Source of the DNA: Desulfatiglandales bacterium
Lineage (GTDB): Bacteria; Desulfobacterota; DSM-4660; Desulfatiglandales; Desulfatiglandaceae
Length of the DNA: 64,000 nt
NCBI GenBank assembly: GCA_963662465.1
Contig: OY759599.1
Coordinates: 6,752,001 to 6,816,000 of the forward strand
Direction: 5' to 3'
Shown: positions 13,341 to 41,711 of the stretch, one piece after another
Layout: the number at the start of each line of letters is the position of its first letter
Position numbering within the stretch: position 1 is the first letter of the stretch
Program-made: the position numbers and the translations under genes
The notes under the pieces: model-generated
What the model saw: only the letters and a program-made list of their open reading frames with translations
Database searches by the model: none
Told to the model about the DNA's origin: nothing

Positions 13341-14256
13341 GGTTAACGACAAGCTCACCGGCCCCCTGCACCGGGCTTTGCGATTACCCCGCCGCGTCCA
13401 GGGGTCCGGTGAAGCGTTTTGTTGTGTGCCGGGCACGGCACGTGTTCTTAAGGGTGCGCGTAATGTACCATGCTTCCGATATTTTACGCAAGTCCCAGAC
13501 CCAGCCAGGTAGTGGCGAAGGGTGTAGCGGTATCACAACTGGGTACCCGGTAACGGGCCTGGAGAGGCAGTGGCCTTGCCGCAGCAGGGCACCGCAAACG
13601 CACGGGGCGACGAACAGAAATCGAGTGAGGCGGGTCTGGTGGGACGAGTTCGCAACACAGAACAAAGTCCTCTAACTACTATAGGCCAGGCACGTATACT
13701 CGGCGCTCGTGTGCGGAAAGACACGTGTTTACCCCGGGAGGCCCGTTGCGTCTCGTAGGGAACTGCAACTGAAATCCACCGGAATATAAGGGAAAACCGG
13801 TAAAACAAAACCCTGGCGTCAGGAACATTTCGAGTCATAGCCCTGACGAGCCCGGCCTATTGGTCGGGAAACACAAACAAATGGACTCGACAGATTGCGG
13901 AAACCACGAGTGAGCGAACCGCAAGGGGAGCCCACCGCGTAACGGGAGTCAGCAGAGGGCATATTAAGCCGGAGAAACGAGCCCTGAATAAAGGGAAGCC
14001 TCACTCCGGTGAAGGCCCGAACGGTCCCACCTGCCGAATGGCAGGGGTAAATGGTCGTGGTTGTCAAAGAACGTGTACTTGTTGGCTTAATGCAGCAGTA
14101 GCTGAAAGGTCGATAACGTCGCATTCTGGAAAACCCGGTAGGGCGGAACCTGTTTTATCCGTGCCTGCTCTGACCAGCCGAATCGCCGTATACGGACCCG
14201 TATGTACGGTGGTGTGGGAGGGGGGAGCTGTGAGGCTCCTCCCTATCCCCATAACC
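13341..14256 (-). repeat. attC site interrupted in R'' by the IIC intron
   Basis: Removing 13424-14252 restores plus-strand GTT|AACC, complementary to GGTTAAC at 13341-13347. Confidence 0.88.
13424..14252 (+). mobile_element. ORF-less group IIC-attC intron, antisense to the cassettes
   Basis: 5' GTGTG; IIC domain I motifs (GGACGAGTTCGCAACACAGAACAAAGTCC; GGAAAGAC...TACCCCGGGAGG); DIII GAGTCAGCAGAGG; short IIC DV with CGC triad (14180 onward); DVI ending CTATCCCCAT; no RT ORF. Confidence 0.9.
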
Positions 14257-15354
14257 GCATTCTGATTTTCCTAATTGCACGGAATTGGTGAGTAAGGACG
14301 CGCACTTTGCTTTATACCTGGTGTATTAATCCGTTTCCAGGTTGGAGCCCATACTTAGCGCATCTCTAGATTTCAACTGATGAAATCGACGTCACACATG
14401 ACCCTTTTTAAAGGGTATTCTTCCTTATATGTTTTTCCAATGACTTTCGGTTAGGTAGTGCTCTCCGCAGCGTCACTCCGTTGCGGCAGAAAGGACTGCT
14501 GGTTAATTGCCCGCCAATATTTCATTATTGAGAAACCACTTTGAAATTCGGCTGTAGCTTCAAAGTCCCACCTCCTGATGCAAGTGGATTGTAAATTTCG
14601 CTAACTCCGTAATGTTCCGAGAAAGAGTTATTCCAACCACCGCTGATGGTAATAGTTCCCGCCTTTTTCCAGTTCGGTGACTCTAGAAAAGTATCGGCAT
14701 CGACCTTGATGAGCGAGCCATCTTGCGCCGCTTCCAGGGCAAGCTGAATCGTCTCATAACAAGGTTCTTGGCCACATTGCCCATCTGCATCTACATATAA
14801 AGTGGATGAATAAGAGGTAGTAAATGAGATATCATCGCCATAACCTGTTCCTGCTGAATTAGTTGCATAAGCCCTTAAATGATATGCGGTGCCAGGGGCT
14901 AAACCAGTAACCGAACTTACAAAACTGTCGGTCCCCGAACCTTCATTCGTTTTTGTAGTTAAAGCAACCGTGGGGTTTGGCGATGTGCTCCAACAAACGC
15001 CCTTTTGCGTTACAGATAATCCTCCATTTGATGAAATGTTGCCATCCGATATAGCACTGCTATCCGTTATGGAGGATATTGGAACCGTATTGACTGTAGG
15101 CACGTCATAAATAGTTATAAGTCCCTGGGAGGTCTGTTTTGAGGTATCATTAAGAGGTTCAATCTTGATAACAGAATTTACTGAGGCTGGTCCTGTCACT
15201 TTCCATTCATAAAAACCATCATTTTCTGTGGATGCAATGACGGTCTCAAAAGAATTGTTTTTTCCACCTTCCCTGGAAATTGATATCTTAACGTTTCCTG
15301 AAATGCTTTTAGTATCCCATTCCACGTTCATTTGGTTTCCGACTTTCCACCTAG

Positions 15355-24394: not shown

Positions 24395-24482
24395 AGCCAA
24401 CGCTTGCCATAACCGGCAGCTAAAAGCATAGCGACAATAGGAGCGATGCTTTTAGCTGTCCGAGTTGATGGGATTGTTAGGG
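24395..24482 (-). repeat. attC site (divergent type)
   Basis: R'' CCCTAAC, long stem CAGCTAAAAGCAT / ATGCTTTTAGCTG, R' GTTGGCT. Confidence 0.85.
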
Positions 24483-28620: not shown

Positions 28621-28713
28621 GTGAGGTTCTCCTTCCTTAACGGCTGCTATTTCCCGAATACGCTTGAGCACATGAAGGCAACGGGCCAAACCGAGCACCG
28701 TCATGTATCGCAC

Positions 28714-30939
28714 GTCGAGTAGCCAGGGGATGTTGCCATCCCCCAGCCCTCTAAGAACCGTGCGTGCGCCGTTAAACGCACACGGCTCAAGCATTCCAAA
28801 GGCAAGCCCTTTCGGGGCTACCCGGTTGTGACGTTTTATGCTCTTTACGCCTGTCTGCCTTCTGCTGACTGCGTTGGGCATATCGTTTCCTGAAATAGTG
28901 TTCATATTTCGGATCGAAGGGGTTCGCATCCCCTCGAATTTTGACATGGCGTTTTATCTTGACGTCGTAAGCTTTCTCAAGTTCAATTCTAGCGGATTTC
29001 GCATAGCCGTCCTTGATCACCGCTGAAAAGGACCACGGACGAGATCCTTTTGACCAGTATTTATCCACCAGCCAACTCTTACTCTTGCCCGAATGTTTCC
29101 TCCTCATCCATTGCCAAATATAGCTGTAGATACGGTGATCTACAAGCCCGAAAGTTCTACCGGAAACCACATGCCTGTGGTAATTGGCCCATCCCCTGAT
29201 TTTGGGATTGAGCACTTTAATCAGGGTGTCGGCTCTTGATGCCGCATGCTTTCGGATCGTTTGCCGGATATTGCCTAAGAAGGCTTTCACGTTTTTACGA
29301 GAGGGCTTTATCAAGAGCTTCCCCTGGTATTTGCGTGGATTCTGTCCGAGAAAATCAAATCCTTCTTCTATCCTTGTGATCAACGTCTTTTCCGCTGAAA
29401 GCGAAAGTCCTCTTCGCTCCATAAATGCTTCAATTTCCAGCTTGATCTCATTTAGCATCTCTCTGGAATTCCCGGTGATGATGAAATCATCAGCGTAACG
29501 GATTACGTTTATCTTGGACCGTATATTGCCCTGGATTCTTATCGGGGCGGTACTTTTGGCTGCCGCTTCCAGACCATCCAGGACCATATTAGCCAATGTT
29601 GGAGAGATAATCCCGCCTTGCGGGGTTCCTCTGTAAGTCGGATAGAGCTTGCCTCCTTCCACATAACCGGATTTCAGCCATTTCTGAAGCGTCCGTTTAT
29701 CCATGGGGATATTTTCGAGCATCCATTGATGGCTGATTTCGTCAAAACAGGCCTTTATGTCTCCCTCCAAAATCCATGCGGGTGAGTAGCTCTTGGCCAG
29801 AGAAATAAAACAATGACCGATGGCATCCGCACATCCTCGATAGGCTCTGAACCCATAAGAGTTCGGATCGGCGGTGGTTTCCGCCACCGGATCAAGGGCC
29901 AGTTTGTGCAACGCCTGCATGGCTCTGTCTTTCATGGTGGGAATGCCCAATGGGCGTTTCTTGCCGTTTTTCTTGGGTATGTAAATTCGGCGCAGCGGTT
30001 TGGGTCGGTAAGTTCTTCGGTGCAGGTCTTTTGCCGCCTGCATTTTGTCAATGTGGGTGGACCATATAACTTTATCCACTCCCGGCGTGCGTTTACCTCG
30101 GTTGGAAGTAACGCGCTTGATGGCCAACAACTTGGCATAAAACGAATGGGTCAAAAGCCATTGTATTGCCTTAACCTTTCCCCATCGCTTTTCCTTCACA
30201 GCCTTTGCGATACGCACCTGCAGTCTTCTAACGTGCTCGCCGGCGGTTCTCCAGTTTATGGATTTCCACCAGTTTGTTCCGTCCAAAGGTGCACCAGTCG
30301 CCAAAATGGCCACCGTCATTTGCTTTCCCCTGTTTGAAGATTCTACAAATTATCTCGCAATGGAACACCGGTCAGAAGTCTGCTCTCTTTCGAGCCGGAT
30401 CATGTAGGTGATTACACCGTCAATCCGTATCCCCATCATTACAACGGGGCATTTGCTTTTTTCTGACATCCTTTACCCGCAACCCCATGGGCTCACCTTG
30501 CGGTTCGCTTTCCCCGTGGGGAGGATTACGGGCTTACCATGTTCCGCGTAAGTACCCGAGCAGGTTAGGTTCCGCCCGTACGCCGGTGGCACGACATCCG
30601 CGATGGAGGAGTTCGCAGCCCCCATACCTGGCCACATACCGTTTGGTCCAAGCCTTTCAGCATCTTAGGCTTGTTCTCGTGACGACGCTGCAGCGATTCA
30701 CATGTGTTAACCATACTGCTCAATTCTAGCTCCCTTACCGCATGATGCTTGCAGAGTTGAGGTCTCCTCACGGTTCCCTCTCCCGGAAGATTCCGCGGGC
30801 TTCATTGTCCCGAGAGCTTCACACCCCCGGATTACTCCGGACGCATGTCCCGGTAGAATACCTGTTGCAGAAAACAGGGTTTTGTTATATGGTTTATATC
30901 AATATACAAAACAGCTACTTACGCGACATCACGTCGCAC
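28714..30939 (-). mobile_element. Complete group II intron (IIB, chloroplast-like RT lineage) inserted in attC R', same sense as the cassettes
   Basis: 5' GTGCG; DV GAGCCGTGTGCG...CACGCACGGTTC; 3' CTACTCGAC; EBS1 GCGAAC (30611-30616); EBS2 ACAAGC (30669-30674). Confidence 0.93.
28787..30319 (-). CDS. ltrA: Group II intron reverse transcriptase/maturase, no HNH endonuclease domain
   Basis: INW...VRRLQVRIAKA N-terminus; RPLGIPT; GTPQGGIISP; YADD. Confidence 0.95.
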   Translation of the reverse strand: MTVAILATGAPLDGTNWWKSINWRTAGEHVRRLQVRIAKAVKEKRWGKVKAIQWLLTHSFYAKLLAIKRVTSNRGKRTPGVDKVIWSTHIDKMQAAKDLHRRTYRPKPLRRIYIPKKNGKKRPLGIPTMKDRAMQALHKLALDPVAETTADPNSYGFRAYRGCADAIGHCFISLAKSYSPAWILEGDIKACFDEISHQWMLENIPMDKRTLQKWLKSGYVEGGKLYPTYRGTPQGGIISPTLANMVLDGLEAAAKSTAPIRIQGNIRSKINVIRYADDFIITGNSREMLNEIKLEIEAFMERRGLSLSAEKTLITRIEEGFDFLGQNPRKYQGKLLIKPSRKNVKAFLGNIRQTIRKHAASRADTLIKVLNPKIRGWANYHRHVVSGRTFGLVDHRIYSYIWQWMRRKHSGKSKSWLVDKYWSKGSRPWSFSAVIKDGYAKSARIELEKAYDVKIKRHVKIRGDANPFDPKYEHYFRKRYAQRSQQKADRRKEHKTSQPGSPERACLWNA

Positions 30940-31024
30940 GCGAACGACAAGCTCAGCGGCCCCTCCACCGGCCCCCGCCGGAACCGCCAGACTTCCAGGG
31001 GTCCGCTGAAGCGCCTGGTTCGCC
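30940..31024 (-). repeat. attC site (main family); intron inserted after GTTCGC
   Basis: GGCGAAC-CAGGCGCTTCAGCGGACCCC...GGGGCCGCTGAGCTTGTC-GTTCGC. Confidence 0.92.
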
Positions 31025-31045
31025 AACCCCGGTTTTCTTAAAAGT

Positions 31046-31258
31046 TCAGCCAGTTGCAGCAATTTTTTCAGACTGTTCATCTAAAGCTCTGAGCGTTTCT
31101 TGGATAGCTATTACTTCCGTCTCATCAAAATAGGTCTCACCGCATTGGCTGCATACCCAAGCAGGAATTCTATCCATAGTGAGATGGTATCCCTTCCGAT
31201 CAACATGAAAAGGAGCAATGCCTTTTTCCATCTTTCCTTGACAGTAAATGCAGTTCAT
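31046..31258 (-). CDS. YgiT-type zinc finger (MqsA-like) antitoxin
   Basis: MNCIYCQG...IPAWVCSQCGE. Confidence 0.85.
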   Translation of the reverse strand: MNCIYCQGKMEKGIAPFHVDRKGYHLTMDRIPAWVCSQCGETYFDETEVIAIQETLRALDEQSEKIAATG

Positions 31259-31584
31259 GATCGTTTCCTCTTTTTGAAATCTGATTCCCATTCGCGGGGA
31301 TTGGGAATATACGCTGTAATGATGGCCAGGTAATCAGTTTTAGGCGAGCAAACGATGTGTATTGAGCGACCGTCTACACCCTGCCCCAAAATCAGGCAGC
31401 TATGCCCTCGCGAATCCCCCGGATAATCCTCAACCAATTCACCTTGCTCCACTGCCTTTCTAACATCAAGGGGACTTATCATTCTGTCCGGTCTGGACAT
31501 CTGCCGCACAGCATGCGGGAGGTAAATGATCCTCTTCCCCGCACTCTCTCGGGCTGACTTTATGGTATCAGAAACTTCATTCAT
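31255..31584 (-). CDS. DUF4258 putative toxin
   Basis: PHAVRQM, VEDYP, SCLILG, IHIVC, ITAYIP..W. Confidence 0.85.
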   Translation of the reverse strand: MNEVSDTIKSARESAGKRIIYLPHAVRQMSRPDRMISPLDVRKAVEQGELVEDYPGDSRGHSCLILGQGVDGRSIHIVCSPKTDYLAIITAYIPNPREWESDFKKRKRS

Positions 31585-31751
31585 AACAGACTCTCAAGAA
31601 ATTAGTGGCGCGAGATAAAATCTGGATCCAGTTTTCCAATTTTGATATTAAATTGGGCATCCCAATCCTTCTGAGTATAGACTTAAACGTATGCCATTGG
31701 GCGATAATGAAGGATGAAAGGATGCAATAATGTCAGCACGCACCATGCTTC

Positions 31752-33665
31752 TCATTTCAATCCTGCTTTGTGAAGACCCACTGTTAACTGTTTCCGGATA
31801 GCCTCATCTTTATAAGATGCAACAAGATGGCTGATACACGCGAAAGAAAAATCTGGATTTATTTCTATCACTTTCGACACTTCAAAACGAGTGCCGTCTT
31901 CGTCTCCCAAAATCGCATAAACAAAAGCAAGAAATATGTGACCATATAAAAATTTTGGTGCAATTTGAATTGCACTTTCAAACGCAGAAATCGCTTCATC
32001 ATACCTGCCGAGTCTCGTATAAGCCCTTCCAAGAACGGTAAAATACCAGGGAGGAGGTAAAGGATTTAATCGAAGTGCTTTTTTCAGTGATGTTAGTGCT
32101 TCATTAAATTGGCCAATTTTGAATAGATAATAGCACCGAATTACGTAAATGTCCGGCCAATTGGGATCCATTTTGATGGCCTTATCGAACTGTTCTAAAG
32201 CTTTCTCATCCTTTCCCACAAAAGTATAAACAGCGCCCATTGTTTCGTGAGCAAAAGGACAGGAGTTATTTACGGTTAGAGCTTTTTGGGCGAGTTCAAA
32301 TGCTTTTCCGATTGATTCCTTCGGAGTTTTACTCACGCACATTCCCACTTCGGCCAAATAGCCCCAAGCGAGATAGGCATATGCTGCCCCATAGTTTGGA
32401 TCTAGTTCGATGGCTTCCTGGCATTTTTGCATGGATAATTTGTTTCCCTCCACATCCCCCTGCCAACCGTAATACATAGCCTCAATGAACTTTAAATAAG
32501 CACCAACATTATTTGTTCCTCTCGCGCAAGGACCTACACCGATGCCACCAATTATCTTGATATGAAGAGATTGCGATATTTTTAATGCAATTTCATCTTG
32601 TAGGTCGAATATATCGTTAATATTGCGGTCATAAGTCTCCGCCCAAAGATGATTGCCATTCTTAGTATCAATGAACTGGGCCGTCACACGTATCCGATCC
32701 CCAGATTTCTGAATGCTTCCTTCAAGTACATAATGAACATTTAGTTGCTGTCCCAATTCTTTAATATTTACGGGCTTGCCCTTAAAGGTAAAGGTCGTGT
32801 TACGGGCGGTAACGGAAAGGTCTGGAATTTTGGCAAGTACAGTAATGATATGCTCTGTGAAACCATCGCAAAGATATTGTTGTTTTGGATCGCCAACCAT
32901 ATTGGTGAAAGGCAGAACAGCGATAGAATTCTTCTCAGACATTGGGTTCAGCGGTTTTTTCGCCGAATCAGACGAAATGCTTTTGAGGGGTGATTTAGCG
33001 TCTGTTGGAAGTGAGTTTTGGTTTGGATAAAGACGCCAAAATGCAAGAGCAGCTCCGAGGATTACAAGAACAACCATCACCACGACTTTTTTTCTCCCCA
33101 ATTTCAATTTTCTTTCCGGTTCTGCAGCATCCTCGTGATCTAAGGATATCTTGTAAACCTTTATCGGTTTAGCGATATTCTTTACTGTGTGCTTACCAAT
33201 AAAATGAAATCCTAATTCCAACTTGTTTTCGATTTGCTCATAACCGCTTCCAGAAATACAGATTCCACCACCATCAGCCAATGATTCGATCCTAGCAGCA
33301 ATGTTTACTCCGTCACCGTAAATGCGATCAGCATCTTGAATAACATCGCCAAGGTTTATGCCCATTCTGAAAATCATCCTGCGATTTTCAGGCAGTTCCT
33401 CATTCTTGTCCTTCAGAGCTTTCTGGATTTCAACCGCACACTGGACAGCATCCACTACACTGGCGAATTCAGAAAGAATATTGTCACCGGGAGAATCCAC
33501 CACACGCCCGCTGTGCCTTTGGACGATTGCAGAGAAAATTTCGCGGTATTCAGTAATGGTTTTGACCGTGGCAATCTCATCGTCGCCCATGAGGCGACTA
33601 TAGCCTTGAACATCTGCGCTAAGTATGGCTCTGAGTTTTCTTACAACTCTATTTGGTTCCATCAC
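31752..33665 (-). CDS. Class III adenylate/guanylate cyclase with TolB-like N-terminal and TPR domains
   Basis: ADVQGYSRLM, GDNIL, GDGVNIAAR; TM helix; SIAVLPFTNM; TPR repeats. Confidence 0.92.
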   Translation of the reverse strand: MMEPNRVVRKLRAILSADVQGYSRLMGDDEIATVKTITEYREIFSAIVQRHSGRVVDSPGDNILSEFASVVDAVQCAVEIQKALKDKNEELPENRRMIFRMGINLGDVIQDADRIYGDGVNIAARIESLADGGGICISGSGYEQIENKLELGFHFIGKHTVKNIAKPIKVYKISLDHEDAAEPERKLKLGRKKVVVMVVLVILGAALAFWRLYPNQNSLPTDAKSPLKSISSDSAKKPLNPMSEKNSIAVLPFTNMVGDPKQQYLCDGFTEHIITVLAKIPDLSVTARNTTFTFKGKPVNIKELGQQLNVHYVLEGSIQKSGDRIRVTAQFIDTKNGNHLWAETYDRNINDIFDLQDEIALKISQSLHIKIIGGIGVGPCARGTNNVGAYLKFIEAMYYGWQGDVEGNKLSMQKCQEAIELDPNYGAAYAYLAWGYLAEVGMCVSKTPKESIGKAFELAQKALTVNNSCPFAHETMGAVYTFVGKDEKALEQFDKAIKMDPNWPDIYVIRCYYLFKIGQFNEALTSLKKALRLNPLPPPWYFTVLGRAYTRLGRYDEAISAFESAIQIAPKFLYGHIFLAFVYAILGDEDGTRFEVSKVIEINPDFSFACISHLVASYKDEAIRKQLTVGLHKAGLK

Positions 33666-33794
33666 CGGCCTCCAAGATAATTGAGACTGAAAAAAAGACT
33701 ATGAGCAGGGCTGTACATATGGATTGTATCTATAATACGAAACGAATCTATAAATGCCAAATACCAAATTTGGGGGTTCTACGTCTTTGAAGGC

Positions 33795-35918
33795 TCTCAC
33801 GGTAGGAACGCCGGTCACCCAGCGCCCCCCGCACAGTCCCGGACGTGCGGTTTTCCCGCATCCGGTTCCTCGGTTGTACTCGCTTTCGCGCAAAGCATCA
33901 GCATTAGCAAAACACCTTTCGTGGCCGGGGTGCCGTCGGTAGCTTCGGTTTGGCGATCCCCAGGCGATTTATGGCCCGGTTGAAAGCCTTCCAGGTGAAA
34001 CTTCTCCGCTTACCCCCTCTTCGGTTCAGCCACTTAAACGCACAATCACTCGCCCATCGGTAAAAACGCCATAACGAATTGGCGTTCCCCACCACGCTGT
34101 AATAGTTGTAATGTCCGCGCAGTTTGCGGTTGAGCGTCTTTATGAACGCAATCCCCTTCAAATGTCGGTTTTCCTTCACCCATTCCTTGATGCGCCTGCA
34201 GGCACCCTGCAGCTTTTTACGGCCGGTGCGCTGCATGACTCTCACCTTTCCCTGTTTGTCATAGGTCCAGTAGGTCTCAAAACCCAAAAAGACAATCCGC
34301 CTGCGCATGCTCGGATCAAAACGACTGAATCGCATCATGGCGGTTTTATCAGGCGCTACACTGAGGCCAAACTTCAAAAGCCTTTCGGGCAGCACGTGGA
34401 AAAACCCTTTTGCCTCTTTTTTGTACTGAAAAGCACAGACAAAATCATCTGCGTACCGAATGATCATGGCGGCCCCTTTACAGTGGGGCTTCACCACCTT
34501 TTCAAACCATAAGTCAAGGGCAAAATGCAGGTAGACATTGGCCAAAACCGGCGATACAATCCCCCCTTGGGGAGTACCGCTGTCCGGATGGATAATTTTG
34601 CCATCCGTATCCAGAATGCCGGCTTTAAGCCATTTTTGGATCAGATTTAAAAACGGCGCATCATCAACTCTTTCCATGAGCATTCGCATCAGCCAATCAT
34701 GGTCCATATGGTCGAAAAAGCCTTTGATATCGGCCTCGACGACATATCCATATGATCCAAACTGAAGTTCAAAACGCAAATCATTGACAGCGTCTTTTGC
34801 GCTTCGGTTGGGCCTGTAACCATAGCTGACATTCAGAAAGTCAGCTTCGAATATGGCTGTCAGGAGTTTGGCACATGCCAATTGCACCAACCGGTCTTCA
34901 AGGGCCGGAATGCCCAAGGGGCGTTGTTTGCCGTTTTCTTTGGGGATGTAACTTCTGCGTACCAGTTTGGCACGGTAACGTCTGGTTTTCAATCGCTCCG
35001 CCAATGACGCGATATTGGCCTCAAGATTTCCTTCGTAGGCCTCGGCCGTCACTTTGTCCACACCACTGGCTGCATCCTTATTCAGGTCTTTCCAGCAGGC
35101 ACGGAGAAACGGCGCGTTCAGACACCGGTAAAGGTCTTGAAAGCGGTGTTTTCCATCAACTTTTGCCTTAATGGCTATTCCCTGCAGTGAGGTTGGCTCG
35201 TATTGTTCCAGCCCTACATTGTCCGGTGCGAGTTTCCTTTGCAGACTGCGTACTTCCGTCAGGTCCTTCCCCATGTGGTGGGCTTTCCCCACCGCTGAGT
35301 AGTATGCCTGATAAGACACCCCATTGGCGTATAGAGGGCCATCGGAGGTCCGATTTTCCTCCCACCCGGTTGTTCCTTTCAGCATTTCGGCTGTGTAGTG
35401 AACCACTGTTACTTTACCTCACCGTCAGTGTGAAATAAACTCCCTGGAGCCTTTGGGGCTTCCCGAGTTCTACGGCGCATCTCTTCCTGCATGCCACGGC
35501 CTGAGGACTCCGGCGGACCTCCACATCCTCGCCATAAACGGATGCTTCCGTGTTGCCTTCGGTGAACGTTCAAACCCTCGGCGTCCGCAATTGCTATTTC
35601 GAAGCTGTACCAGCACTTCAGGGTGCGCGATCACCCCTGCGGCCTACAGGATACTCTGCCTACGCTTAACCCATCTTGTTCGCTGCTTCCACCGTTAGGT
35701 GGGGTGAGTCCATCCGCCTATTTGCTCATCCCTGAGCGCGGCTCGTTTCCAACCAGCATATGAATGCCGATGTCCTACACCTGACAGACTGAACAACTCC
35801 GCCATGGGTCCAAGGCTCGATACGGGTGGGTGGCTAACCCTTACAGAAAGCCATTACTGATTTTCCTCCCGACAGGGACTTTCACCCTGCAAGATACGCC
35901 GAGCTTTCCTCGGCGCGA
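33795..35918 (-). mobile_element. Complete group II intron (bacterial class E-like RT) inserted in attC R' after GTTC; non-canonical termini
   Basis: Starts TCGCGCCGAGG; EBS1 GAACGTT (35565-35571) matches the exon AACGTTC; DV GAACCGGATGCGGGAAAACCGCACGTCCGG; ends CCTACCGTGAG(A); 3' boundary uncertain by 1 nt. Confidence 0.88.
33904..35406 (-). CDS. ltrA: Group II intron reverse transcriptase/maturase, no endonuclease domain; true start probably near 35200
   Basis: TSLQGIA.KA, RFQDLY, RPLGIPALED, GTPQGG, YADD. Confidence 0.93.
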   Translation of the reverse strand: MVHYTAEMLKGTTGWEENRTSDGPLYANGVSYQAYYSAVGKAHHMGKDLTEVRSLQRKLAPDNVGLEQYEPTSLQGIAIKAKVDGKHRFQDLYRCLNAPFLRACWKDLNKDAASGVDKVTAEAYEGNLEANIASLAERLKTRRYRAKLVRRSYIPKENGKQRPLGIPALEDRLVQLACAKLLTAIFEADFLNVSYGYRPNRSAKDAVNDLRFELQFGSYGYVVEADIKGFFDHMDHDWLMRMLMERVDDAPFLNLIQKWLKAGILDTDGKIIHPDSGTPQGGIVSPVLANVYLHFALDLWFEKVVKPHCKGAAMIIRYADDFVCAFQYKKEAKGFFHVLPERLLKFGLSVAPDKTAMMRFSRFDPSMRRRIVFLGFETYWTYDKQGKVRVMQRTGRKKLQGACRRIKEWVKENRHLKGIAFIKTLNRKLRGHYNYYSVVGNANSLWRFYRWASDCAFKWLNRRGGKRRSFTWKAFNRAINRLGIAKPKLPTAPRPRKVFC

Positions 35919-36047
35919 GAACGTTTTAGTTAACAGGCGAACGGGCAAGAAAGAAATATGCGACCAATCCACCCGGAAGCGTGATACGGAAAAATCAATT
36001 TCAATTTGCTCCAATGACCAGTTTGCCTGTTCAACGGCTGGTTGGAC
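35919..36047 (-). repeat. attC site of the IS91-like cassette (copy 2)
   Basis: GTCCAAC-CAGCCGTTGAACAGGCAAAC...GTTCGCCTGTTAACTAAAAC-GTTC. Confidence 0.87.
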
Positions 36048-36307: not shown

Positions 36308-37483
36308 CTATGCTGCTTGGGCATGTATCATGTCCTGGACTTTATTGAACCTCGGAAGCTCTCTTAACTTTTTGACCGGCGTCAATATTTCCAGAGTTAT
36401 GAGGCGTTTCCCGCAAACAGGGCAACAATCCGGTCGCTCGTCGCTTCGCTGTTGCCAGAGACTCTGCCAATCCAGGAATTCCAGACTTTCAAGAGGCGGT
36501 TGACCCAGTATTTCCCGGCAGAGTGCCAGTTCTTCTTTTGAGCTGTGATGATAGAGTCCGTATGAACGCACCATCACGGTATTCGCTAGGGGGACGTGTT
36601 GCAGATAGCGGCTGATAAAGGTTTGAATCGGCAGGGAGATGAGTTCCACCTTCTCACGACCGTAATTGAAGGTCACGTTCCCGTTTTCAATGCTGTAGAT
36701 GCGTTTGTTTGAAATTGGCCCGCCTCTCAAGTAACGCGCCAGGTAAATCAACACGCCTTCGCCGTATGAATAGGTCTCTTTGAGCTTGACGTTCCATTTT
36801 TTGCGGCGGCCCAGTTTATTGAAGAGGTTCCGGGCCTGCTGAGGCCCCATACCCTCGGGCAGAACCAGTTCGTTCCGATCCAGGGCTTTTCTCAAATAGT
36901 AGAGGTACTTGCCTCGAAATACCGCCCGGACGATGCCAAAGGGCAAAAGGAATTTTTTTGATGAAGCGATCCACTCGCCGGCGATCAGCCCACCGGCCGT
37001 TACCAGACAATGCAGATGCGGATGAAAGTCCAGTTTTCGGCTCCAGGTATGCAGTGAGGCGATGATGCCGACTTTGCCCCCCAAATGCTTCGGATCTCCA
37101 AGGAGTTCGGAAAGGGTTTCAGTGGCGCTTTTGAACAGCAGATTGCCCATAAGCTTGCGGTTCAACCGCCATAAGTCGTGCAATTCATCGGAGATGGTGA
37201 AAATAACATGGAAATGTTCGGTGTTTAAGATGCGAGCCTTTTGTTTTGCCAGCCAACGTTCCACCTGGGTAAAAGCGCAGAGGGGGCACATGCGATGTTT
37301 ACACGAGTTGTACCAGTGCATTTTGAAGTGACCGTCCGGGCACGCCTGCACGTGACCCCCCAGAGCAGATGTGCGGCAACTCATCAGACGGTGTGCCGCT
37401 TCACGAATATGTTCCGGAAGAAGATGGGTCTGATCATAGAGGGCATAGCCTATAAGAAAGATGCTCTGAATCGTCGCTTCCAC
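36308..37483 (-). CDS. IS91-family (Y2/HUH) transposase with Zn-binding N-terminus, as a gene cassette
   Basis: CRTSALGG, YNSCKHRMCPLC, HVIFT, HPHLH, YLARY. Confidence 0.9.
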   Translation of the reverse strand: MEATIQSIFLIGYALYDQTHLLPEHIREAAHRLMSCRTSALGGHVQACPDGHFKMHWYNSCKHRMCPLCAFTQVERWLAKQKARILNTEHFHVIFTISDELHDLWRLNRKLMGNLLFKSATETLSELLGDPKHLGGKVGIIASLHTWSRKLDFHPHLHCLVTAGGLIAGEWIASSKKFLLPFGIVRAVFRGKYLYYLRKALDRNELVLPEGMGPQQARNLFNKLGRRKKWNVKLKETYSYGEGVLIYLARYLRGGPISNKRIYSIENGNVTFNYGREKVELISLPIQTFISRYLQHVPLANTVMVRSYGLYHHSSKEELALCREILGQPPLESLEFLDWQSLWQQRSDERPDCCPVCGKRLITLEILTPVKKLRELPRFNKVQDMIHAQAA

Positions 37484-37543
37484 TGAAACCTCCTTTATTT
37501 ACTGGGAGTTACGACGTTAGTTCCCCCGCTGTCCAGCGGGTCT

Positions 37544-37629
37544 GTCCAACGACAAGCTCAGCGGCCCCTCCACCGCCCCCCGCCAGAACCGACAGATTTT
37601 CAGGGGTCCGCTGGAGCGTTTGGTTGTGT
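37544..37629 (-). repeat. attC site (main family)
   Basis: R'' ACACAAC, ...GCTGAGCTTGTC-GTTGGAC. Confidence 0.92.
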
Positions 37630-38909: not shown

Positions 38910-39040
38910 CCACAACGTTTTAGTTAACAGGCGAACGGGTACGAAAAGACATACGACCAATCCACCCGGAACTGTGATAAGGAAAAATCAATTTCAAATT
39001 ACTCCGATGACCAGTTTGCCTGTTGAACGGCTGGTTGGAC
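38910..39040 (-). repeat. attC site of the IS91-like cassette (copy 1)
   Basis: Homologous to 35919-36047; R'' GTCCAAC, R' GTTGTGG. Confidence 0.88.
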
Positions 39041-39273: not shown

Positions 39274-40449
39274 TTATGCTGCCTGAGCATATATCGTACC
39301 CGGGTCCTTATTGAATCTCGGAAGCATTTTTGACTTTTTTACCGGTACAAGTATTTCCAGCGTGATGAGACGTTTCCCGCAAACAGGGCAACGGTCCGGC
39401 TGCTCGTCGCTTCCCTTTTGCCACAGGGTCTGCCAATCCAGGAATTTCTGGTTTTCAAGGGGCGGTTGACCCAGTATTTCCCGGCAGAGGGCAAGTTCTT
39501 CTCCCAGGCTATGATGATAGAGCCCGTATGACCGCACCATTACGGAATTCGGCAAGGGAACGTGTTGCAGGTAGCGGCCAATAAAGGTCTGAATGGGCAA
39601 GGAGATGAGGTTTACCTGCTCACGACCGTAGTTGAAGGTCACGTTCCCGTTTTCAACGCGGTAGATGCGCTTGTTTGAAATCGGTCCGCCTCTCAGATAC
39701 CGAGCCAGGTAAATTAAGACCCCTTCTCCGTATGAATAGGTCTCCTTGAGTTTAACGTTCCATTTCTTGCGGCGGCCCAGCTTATTGAACAGGTTCCGTG
39801 CCTGTTGGGGCCGCATGCCCTCGGGCAGAACCAGTTCTCCCCGGGAAAGGGCCATCCTCAAATAGTGGAGATATTTGCCTCGAAACACCGCCCGGACGAT
39901 ACCAAAGGGCAAAAGAAACGTTTTTGATGAAGTAATCCACTCACCGGCGGCCAACCCACCGGCCGTTACCAGGCAATGCAGATGCGGGTGAAAGTCCAGT
40001 TTTCGGCTCCAGGTATGCAATGAGGCGATGATGCCGACTTTCGCGCCCAAATGCTTTGGGTCTCCAAGAAGTTCGGAAAGGGTTTCTGTGGCGCTTTTGA
40101 ATAGCAGATTGCTCATTACTTTGCGGTTCAACCGCCATAAGTCATGCAATTCATCGGAGATAGTGAAAATAACGTGGAAATGTTCCGTGTTTAAAATACG
40201 GGCCTTTTGTTTCGCAAGCCACCGTTCAACCTGGGTAAAAGCGCACAGTGGGCACATGCGATGTTTGCACGAGTTGTACCAGTGCCTCTTTAAATGGCCG
40301 TCCGGGCAGGCCTGCACGTGGCCCCCAAGAACGGAAGTGCGACAAACCATGAGACTGTGAGCAGCATTACGTATATGTTCAGGAAGACAATGTGTCTGAT
40401 CATAGAGGGCATAGCCGAGAAGAAAGATGCTCTGAATCGTCGCTTCCAC
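39274..40449 (-). CDS. IS91-family (Y2/HUH) transposase, first cassette of the array
   Basis: Same motifs and length (391 aa) as 36308-37483. Confidence 0.9.
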   Translation of the reverse strand: MEATIQSIFLLGYALYDQTHCLPEHIRNAAHSLMVCRTSVLGGHVQACPDGHLKRHWYNSCKHRMCPLCAFTQVERWLAKQKARILNTEHFHVIFTISDELHDLWRLNRKVMSNLLFKSATETLSELLGDPKHLGAKVGIIASLHTWSRKLDFHPHLHCLVTAGGLAAGEWITSSKTFLLPFGIVRAVFRGKYLHYLRMALSRGELVLPEGMRPQQARNLFNKLGRRKKWNVKLKETYSYGEGVLIYLARYLRGGPISNKRIYRVENGNVTFNYGREQVNLISLPIQTFIGRYLQHVPLPNSVMVRSYGLYHHSLGEELALCREILGQPPLENQKFLDWQTLWQKGSDEQPDRCPVCGKRLITLEILVPVKKSKMLPRFNKDPGTIYAQAA

Positions 40450-40510
40450 TGATATTTCCCTTTATTACTAGTAATTTACGACGTTAGTTCCCCCGCTGTC
40501 CAGCGGGTCT

Positions 40511-40650
40511 GTCCAACCATTGATTATCAGGTCATTTTGCCCTGATAATAGGCCAATCCCTTTATTATCAAGGCATTTCCGCTTTGATATTGAATTATCA
40601 GGCAATTTTGCCTTGATATTGATGTTAAATCCTGTTATCAAGGCAAAACT
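40511..40650 (-). other. attI region (crossover G^TTGGAC at 40517/40516)
   Basis: Identity with the start of the second IS91-like cassette stops exactly at GTT; no attC palindrome; adjacent to the intI start. Confidence 0.8.
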
Positions 40651-40730
40651 TATTGGGGTCATATGGATCATAGGTTTACAATCCTTCCCTATTTTACAAT
40701 AACCGCTACAGTATAAAGAGATGAAATTCA

Positions 40731-41711
40731 ATGTCAACAAAAAACCAGAAACTAATGGATGATGTTCATTCGGTTATGCGGCTCGGGCATTATTCGATTC
40801 ACACGGAAAGATCCTATTGCGATTGGATTAAGCGTTTTATACTTTTCCATGGTATGAAATCTCGTAATGATCTTCAGGGCGCCGAAAGTAAGATCGAGCA
40901 ATTTTTGACCCATCTCGCTGTCAAAGGCAATGTTTCTCCTTCAACTCAGAATCAAGCCATGAACGCCCTTGTATTTTTGTATAAGAAGGTTCTCAAAGAG
41001 TCTCTTGATGGCAGGATTGATGCCGTTCGTGCGAAAAGAAAGCAAAACATTCCCGTGGTTCTCACCAAGGATGAGGTGGTTTCCGTGATCGCGCTCATGC
41101 AAGGAACACCGCAAGTCTTTGTGAAACTGCTTTATGGCAGCGGACTGAGGATGATGGAAGGCATACGGCTGCGCGTTCAAGATATTGAATATGACTTAAA
41201 GGAAATTACCGTGCGTTCGGGGAAAGGGAACAAGGACCGGATTACTACGTTTTCCGTTTCCCTGGCGCCCCTGTTGAAAAGCCATCTTATAAGGGTCAAG
41301 GCGATTCATGAGAAGGATCTTGCTGAGGGAAACGGCGCCGTTTATTTGCCCTACGCTCTGGAACGTAAATATCCCAATGCCGCCAGGGAATGGCAATGGC
41401 AATACGTTTTTCCGTCCGGCAATTTGTCGCGTGATCCCAGAAGCGGTCGGATCAGGCGCCATCATATTGATCCTTCCGTCATCAATAAGGCCATAAAGGT
41501 GGCAGCCAAAAAGGCGGATATTCATAAACGCGTATCCTCACACACATTCCGCCACAGTTTTGCAACTCACCTCTTGCAGCGCGGAACAGACATCCGTACG
41601 ATTCAGGCGCTTTTGGGTCATTCTGACGTTTCCACTACCATGATTTATACTCACGTCCTTCGGCAGGGAGGTCATGGTGTTGTAAGCCCCCTTGATGATC
41701 TTGATCTATGA
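40731..41711 (+). CDS. intI: Integron integrase
   Basis: [28 protein letters not shown], IntI-specific [17 protein letters not shown] insertion, [15 protein letters not shown]...TMIYTH. Confidence 0.97.

Follow-up and report, generated by a model that had tools for sequence, protein, structure and literature searches.

A class E-like group II intron lineage at base 4 of the attC R′ core

An integron array occupied by three intron lineages

The window, as we call the whole 64-kb stretch of DNA analysed here, contains a complete integron (Table 1). An integrase gene (TIGR02249 match of 453.6 bits) and an attI core head an array of attC sites with R″/R′ cores, L arms bearing an extra base, and spacers. 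There are 14 such sites: 13 score at least 10 in one scan, and one more, at 24413, comes from another. The original prediction counted four of the 14 as occupied, with three intron lineages converging on attC cores, and the array indeed carries a class E-like intron at 35922, CL1-like introns at 30945 and 332, and an IIC-like intron at 13347.

The class E-like intron lies in the attC of an IS91-like cassette and is co-oriented with the cassettes. Its 5′ end directly follows AAAAC-GTTC, so that it interrupts the top strand of R′ after base 4, as first proposed, and R′ resumes beyond it as GCC at 33794–33792, giving the core GTTC/GCC (slashes mark insertion or crossover points). The interrupted site, with 5/6-nt spacers and paired L arms, scores 13.25 and 12.9 in two attC scans; control sites have a median of 4.3 and a 95th percentile of 8.0. 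Free MFE folding of the 138-nt site was no better than that of shuffles (z −0.92). In this attC the extra base of L″ is a top-strand G; the sister attC has C there. IS91-family transposase genes are packaged as cassettes twice in the window (36308–37550 and 39274–40517), and at C1:4412446–4425229 a related unit forms 8 tandem copies at 1,609-bp spacing beside another intI.

Table 1. Coordinates of the intron, its host integron, and neighboring introns in the window
Feature	Position	Strand	Remarks
Group II intron, class E-like	35918→33795	minus	2,124 nt; 5′ UCGCG … CCUACCGUGAGA 3′
RT/maturase ORF	33904..35406	minus	500 aa from GTG; YADD; no endonuclease domain
Rfam group-II-D1D4-6 match	35498..35711	minus	57.7 bits; gathering score 49
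Domain V	33836..33868	minus	AAC replacing AGC triad
Domain VI	33795..33830	minus	predicted branch A at 33803
EBS1 (GAACGU)	35566..35571	minus	6/6 pairing with exon end ACGTTC
EBS3 (C)	35505	minus	pairs with G, first base of 3′ exon
Candidate EBS2 loop	35591..35598	minus	only 3 bp to present exon
attC of IS91-like cassette	35919..36047	minus	R″ GTCCAAC 36047–36041; R′ GTTC 35922–35919
IS91-family transposase gene as integron cassette	36308..37483	minus	cassette starts GTTGGAC at 37550, ends GTCCAAC
Downstream cassette owning the intron	30943..33794	minus	cyclase/TPR, DUF4258, and small zinc-finger genes; R″ GGCGAAC 31024–31018
Sister attC	38910..39040	minus	empty; GTTG/TGG
attI core and integron integrase gene	40511..41711	plus	attI GTT at 40517 (minus strand); intI 40731–41711
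Second lineage: CL1-like intron	28700..30939	minus	after R′ base 6 (GTTCGC/GTGCG); start coordinate approximate
Third lineage: ORF-less IIC-like intron	13425..14260	plus	R″, bottom strand; CGC triad; GUGUGCCGGGCACGG start; coordinates approximate

The element is a group II intron retroelement, with an RT/maturase ORF inside a six-domain RNA that includes domains V and VI (DV, DVI). It opens with TCGCGCCGAG (T1 at 35918) and closes with CCTACCGTGAGA, the last base being 33795, with GCC beyond on the minus strand. The ORF is intact; its product matches TIGR04416 at 356 bits (cut-off 300), and domain matches are to RVT_1 and GIIM only, making the protein En-less. Judging from homologs, the true start is likely the ATG at 35274. 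DV-DVI folds well (z −4.13); the Rfam Intron_gpII model gave no match to DV at its gathering score, and free MFE folding of DI-DIII gave no signal. DI contains two insertions (35700–35790 and 35845–35870; about 100 and 24 nt) that are absent in most homologs. The contigs of four RNA runs, which covered only small portions of the window and of which two may have some link to the genome's source, showed no exact exon-exon joint, a result that says nothing about splicing.

The CL1-like intron at 30945 groups with a CL1A reference (UFBoot 100). Its end at 28700 directly precedes GTGCGATAC, which resembles another intron start, and a related CL1-like intron starts at 326. The IIC-like element, originally placed in R′, lies instead in R″ on the bottom strand. 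It follows TTGTT on that strand, one base beyond the published TTGT/T, leaving AAC beside the hairpin; the same start is found at R″ of five other attC sites.

Boundaries, exon pairing, and the ribozyme core

The intron ends, UCGCG…GA, break the GUGYG…AY consensus, and the boundaries were therefore tested four ways. The starts of the upstream cassettes in this array match the complement of the R″ that each carries (7/7, 6/7, and 7/7), and the end of the downstream cassette, GGCGAAC, predicts GTTCGCC, which is exactly the site rebuilt without the intron. At the 3.21-Mb copy of the intron the same prediction is unreadable because an IIC-like intron masks that site. EBS1 covaries with the exon: the window copy pairs GAACG with CGTTC, whereas a 93% sister copy at a GTTG site (C1:3214558) pairs CAACG with CGTTG. 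A single DI column covaries with the base that opens the 3′ exon: 54/60 cases are Watson-Crick pairs, and all four pair types are represented. This tally draws on the 66 ends that could be parsed by pattern (parsing failed for 3 more), less 6 that lacked an EBS3 call. At one homologous locus (L110) an intron end abuts an intron start directly in a tandem junction, and at another (L105) an 11-bp target duplication lies one base past the intron end. Contigs of two RNA runs, which may not be independent of the genome, diverge at 33795. Shifting both ends one base earlier (CUCGCG…GAG, site GTT/AGCC) was rejected because EBS1 covaries with base 4 and EBS3 with base 5, and also because the downstream R″ predicts GTTCGCC. 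At the level of sequence comparison, these results establish the boundaries, the register, and the EBS1 and EBS3 pairings.

The loop GGT-TTGAACGTTC-ACC, which had been singled out for its complementarity to the exon end, lies at 35576–35561 and is indeed complementary, but EBS1 within it is the 6-mer GAACGT (35571–35566) rather than 7 nt long. A 7-bp EBS1 was rejected, since the homolog alignment puts the seventh base at the stem-closing position. From positions −1 to −6, EBS1 and IBS1 form Watson-Crick pairs at 67, 75, 74, 76, 71, and 47 of 76 loci and G-U pairs at 7, 0, 0, 0, 4, and 17. Everything upstream of G/TT changes on cassette shuffling, so the present 6/6 match need not be that of the insertion site, and the poorer pairing at −6 fits such shuffling. 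Pairing of EBS2 to the L′ region averages 3.86 against 3.32 ± 0.13, a value reached in 0/1000 permutations that ignore kinship; in a subclade at IS4 ends, described below, it is not above permutation (142/1000 reached the observed value). Exon recognition is of the IIB type, with EBS1 and EBS3 identified by covariation and a weak EBS2.

The sister attC reads AACGTTG and is empty, as originally noted. Its vacancy had been ascribed to the mismatch at the last base, an explanation we reject: an identical attC at C1:3745983–3745856, whose AAAACGTTC/GCG makes it a perfect target, is empty as well. Among 46 main-family attC sites (16/62 HMM hits had no structural call and were excluded), 11 read CGTTC/G and do not carry this intron. 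Base 4 belongs to the downstream cassette and not to the sister attC itself, and the sister site perfectly matches the CAACGT variant present in the same genome.

Both the ends and the catalytic core are unusual in this clade. Of the 66 parsed ends, 62 combine U1 with a penultimate G and four combine G1 with A; no mixed form occurs. The complete U1/G(n−1)/A(n) pattern is seen in 61, and two of the four G1/A forms (L006, L084) are nested in separate subclades. Such paired changes would be a natural test of the contact between the first and penultimate nucleotides which, like γ-γ′, is described in the accessible text of PMC4238363. Since 63 of the 66 ends terminate in A and J2/3 has no conserved U, the γ-γ′ pair is probably non-Watson-Crick. 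The CL1-like introns of this genome repeat the end pattern: all 7 UUGCG copies end in GGC and 6/7 GUGCG/AUGCG copies in GAC, ends being paired by proximity. The consensus for the catalytic triad is AGC or CGC (PMC4424553); here it is AAC, opposite G, in the window intron and in 78/79 matches (loci with at least 58% RT identity), and AGC in five class E references.

Class assignment and homolog survey

In an IQ-TREE tree of 42 RTs and 424 columns, built from a subset of 63 representatives plus one F reference, the window clade (UFBoot 97) has as its sister a group containing four references labelled E by Miura et al. (their Table 3). Joint support with the class E references is 82 (UFBoot, IQ-TREE) and 0.95 (FastTree, 63 representatives), and references for A, B, C, D, F, G(g1), CL1, and ML fall outside the combined clade. 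The window IEP also has no endonuclease domain, in keeping with class E. On this tree we assign the intron as class E-like, a placement to class and not to E1 or E2. Its ancestry is separate from those of the CL1-like introns at base 6 and the IIC-like introns at R″, as the original prediction had it.

For the survey we fetched 148 loci; with the window and its sister copy these make 150. A plus-strand RT match was present in 131 of them, the 5′ end could be recognised in 89, and 85 had an RT of at least 44% identity. The loci are kin collected with peptide patterns of the query, and the counts are to be read as tallies, not independent trials. Among the 85 junctions, the window included, 52 follow GTT or GTTN and 26 are in IS4 end-repeats, 1 nt from the edge; the other 7 lie elsewhere. 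Of the GTT junctions, 49 are at base 4, which is A in 40, G in 7, and C in 2; the remaining 3 are at base 3, and in two of these (L007, L098) EBS1 has moved by one base to AACGGG. Grouped by 85% RT clusters and singletons, GTT junctions occur in 30/38 groups and IS4 junctions in 5. The original prediction would have been undermined by homologs lying mostly outside integrons; the flanks instead put most of them at attC cores, the exception being the third of junctions (26/85) that forms a nested subclade retargeted to IS4 ends.

An attC-type hairpin scoring at least 8 lies upstream of 28 of the 43 junctions that have a GTT/GCT core and a flank of at least 100 nt, against 19/340 control GTT sites. 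Two earlier scanners overlooked short sites (17/39 at score ≥8), after which a more flexible scanner was written; its threshold of 8 was picked once the control distribution was known, and the 14 window sites score 9.7–13.4 in it. Fifteen of the 43 junctions fall below this threshold, and L093, L096, and L164 are clearly not attC. Five further genomes, four of which contain an integron integrase, yielded 31 copies of the 5′ pattern. Of the 30 examined (6 repeat earlier loci), 26 follow GTTN or GCTA and 16 have a hairpin score of at least 8, compared with 10/150 controls. In one complete genome, 15/19 examined copies follow GTTN or GCTA, 10 of them with a hairpin. As far as sequence can tell, the lineage is enriched at attC. 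The 5′ pattern had no match in viral contigs, and plasmid relatives did not exceed 46%.

With 512 occurrences of the exact 7-mer target in this genome, the preference for attC must rest on more than EBS1 and EBS3; the missing determinant could lie in the IEP, the hairpin, or survival. Survival could in principle carry the whole pattern, if the intron retrotransposes into any NCGTTN/G and its copies persist mainly in non-coding, weakly selected, and often duplicated arrays. Partial matches number in the thousands per genome, 15/43 junctions have no scored hairpin, and several copies sit at non-attC CGTTA sites, all of which this account would accommodate. We nonetheless think it improbable. Intergenic DNA offers far more matches than attC, yet 3/3 independent insertions in this genome and 10/19 in another are at attC-type sites; EBS1 has kept its complementarity to the attC consensus from 45% to 100% RT identity, and the fit of EBS2 to L′ exceeds permutation.

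A second alternative is structure-guided targeting as in group IIC-attC introns, in which the protein or the RNA would recognise the folded attC hairpin, on the top strand, and EBS1 would only set the register. It would explain an enrichment at hairpins above what seven bases give, and it agrees with two statements in the accessible parts of the literature: EBS2 of class E is dispensable for splicing in vitro (PMC3753933), and a role has been proposed for upstream structure (PMC7923331). Against it, the lineage retains a full 6-bp EBS1, compared with 3–4 bp in IIC, and its IS4 subclade switched to a hairpin-less target through changes in EBS1 and EBS3. We consider this alternative unlikely, though a less remote prospect than survival; hairpin recognition could also coexist with base pairing and might be the missing determinant.

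The IS4 subclade (support 100) is nested inside the window clade. Its EBS1 is AAUGGC or close to it, its EBS3 is mostly G, and its insertions lie 1 nt into the right inverted repeat, either of IS4 elements or of 110–200-bp derivatives. Upstream flanks match a transposase in 7/26 cases and a 110–200-bp derivative in 8/26; in 11/26 the flank is too short or has no match. Members of this subclade (L011, L023, L102–L133, L140) insert at the last base step of the right inverted repeat, in IS4 elements and MITE-like derivatives alike, and EBS3 tracks the terminal base, L109 and L140 having C:G. Basal members of the clade (L024, L046, L018, L041) have canonical ends and lie at attC, so that attC targeting looks ancestral to the odd ends. 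Another retargeting is seen in one genome (G209; L179, L181, L182), where an altered EBS1 (UUACGA, UGACGA) accompanies a non-attC repeat ending GTAA/ATAA. The TCGCG start also occurs in a separate class E branch (L054, L055; 39–40% RT identity), which is not at attC.

Possible movement with cassettes and a model for homing

This genome holds three independent class E insertions, every one at base 4. The window intron and its downstream cassette (about 4,980 nt) recur with 100% identity at C1:6740378–6745353, and the identity of the two copies stops exactly at the GTT of the far attC. Differences at 12 sites distinguish the IS91 cassettes preceding the two copies; at every one of them the second cassette agrees with a third IS91 cassette copy, behind which the site is empty. 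The simplest reading suggests that IntI excised the block at the occupied attC and reinserted it behind another IS91 cassette, although gene conversion after block duplication could also have produced the 12 differences. Because the two identical copies represent a single insertion duplicated with its cassette, we considered whether the intron is a one-off at a chance 7-nt match, spread by duplication alone. The independent attC insertions at C1:3214558 and C1:6379419, together with dozens of homologs at the same base, leave almost no room for this, and multiple precise insertions imply past mobility of the lineage.

The 93% sister copy has EBS1 CAACGT at its GTTG site, and its RT is disrupted by a 319-bp insertion with TTATGCAAAG-type repeats (C1:3215916–3216234). 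At the third insertion, C1:6379419, GTTC-TC runs into a CL1-like intron, and GCGCCGAGG follows it. Sequence order shows that the base-6 lineage entered two bases inside the base-4 intron; this gives the order of events, and the two registers collide. This class E copy (C1:6379419–6374783, minus) is split 2 nt past its 5′ end and is degenerate, with its ORF deleted; the CL1-like intron inside it itself carries a 703-aa ORF on the opposite strand. By cumulative GC skew, the window and 3.21-Mb copies run against replication, a sample too small for interpretation.

These data are consistent with a model, to which we assign a probability of about 0.78, in which an En-minus class E (IIB-like) lineage homes by base pairing at base 4 of R′. 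For homing it would use the top strand of attC at its conserved right end, where the intron RNP would reverse-splice between R′ bases 4 and 5, EBS1 reading six bases ending in GTTN, EBS3 reading base 5, and a weak EBS2 reading the L′/spacer region. The RT would then copy the RNA, presumably primed at the replication fork. Inserting 3 nt behind the G/TT crossover, the intron would leave the hairpin and GTT intact and become the 5′ end of the next cassette, and we infer that IntI, acting at the occupied site, can move both together. Shuffling would retain TTN and exchange only the upstream attC, so that an EBS1 matched to the attC consensus (N)CGTTN would stay paired. The model supposes that the intron splices and reverse-splices and that an extra determinant makes it favour attC over other matches. 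The lineage appears to live in integron arrays and travel with cassettes. A broader reading, which we hold to be evenly balanced, makes the attC core a harbour shared by unrelated classes through register, with base 4 (at times 3) taken by class E, base 6 by CL1, and R″ by IIC. The rewired-core class E introns, placed just past the crossover, would leave the site able to recombine and be carried as integrase cargo, and changes in EBS1 and EBS3 would have retargeted them from attC to IS4 ends.

In the accessible parts of the literature, attC homing is tied to class C and the bottom strand, other classes appearing as isolated cases. Group IIC-attC introns (S.ma.I2 and relatives; PMC3001079, PMC7923331) are likewise attC-specialised and En-minus. 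As those texts describe them, they combine a class C IEP with a IIC RNA, insert at R″ on the bottom strand in opposite orientation to the cassettes, and recognise a DNA hairpin with a 3–4 bp EBS1; the window intron belongs to a different class, lies on the top strand at R′ base 4, and has a 6-bp EBS1. UHB.I2 (PMC7923331, accessible text), found after attC, is also on the top strand, co-oriented, and with non-canonical ends (UUGCG..GU), but is of class CL1/IIB1; the CL1-like introns of this genome lie at base 6. The compact, IIB-like group IIE ribozymes Cl.be.I2 and others share a dominant EBS1 and weak EBS2, but in the available portion of PMC3753933 have canonical splice sites, in contrast to UCGCG…GA and the AAC triad of the window clade. 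RmInt2, which enters ISRm17 inverted repeats (PMC4615759, accessible portion), is an En-minus precedent for the IS4 subclade, but is RmInt1-related and described there with no attC link.

Class E introns at attC are foreshadowed in print by bare mentions, and the accessible texts of these give neither register nor lineage. Sonbol and Siam (2021; PMC7923331) reported class E fragments H.ha.F1 and H.ha.F2 in a Halorhodospira halochloris CALIN. Like the window intron, these are described as co-oriented in an attC cluster with a putative attC upstream; in the accessible text, unlike here, they are 5′-truncated and come with no register, EBS pairing, or lineage survey. By eye, H.ha.F2 shares 46/72 identical residues around YADD with the window branch and the start of H.ha.F1 matches the DI-DIII text of the window clade, which would place both on the same branch. 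The 5′ end listed by Miura et al. lies 222 nt upstream of H.ha.F1, in line with the 223–234 nt of most homologs, so the 5′ end of H.ha.F1 may be intact but missed. Consensus-breaking ends may account for such introns being annotated as truncated. One sentence in the accessible part of PMC9229058 places class E and CL1 introns in Shewanella integrons, where an IS91-like element forms a cassette, and says nothing of insertion site, orientation rule, or mechanism. Within the accessible literature that was searched, we found neither a class E lineage homing to R′ (register, pairing, or lineage) nor UCGCG intron ends.

If the model is correct, a widespread class E lineage reading the top-strand core by base pairing would have struck a different bargain with the integron: the crossover is kept, the orientation suits splicing from cassette transcripts, and retroelements gain a route to spread with cassettes. 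Natural variation in base 4 (G or C), in register (3 or 4), and in target (attC or IS4) would supply test cases for the target rules. Class E-type DVI also occurs fused to foreign upstream sequence at C1:2366510–2366565, where the upstream part is a CL1-like DV, and at C1:6823197–6823242, chimeric 3′ ends that perhaps arose by recombination at the DV/DVI junction.
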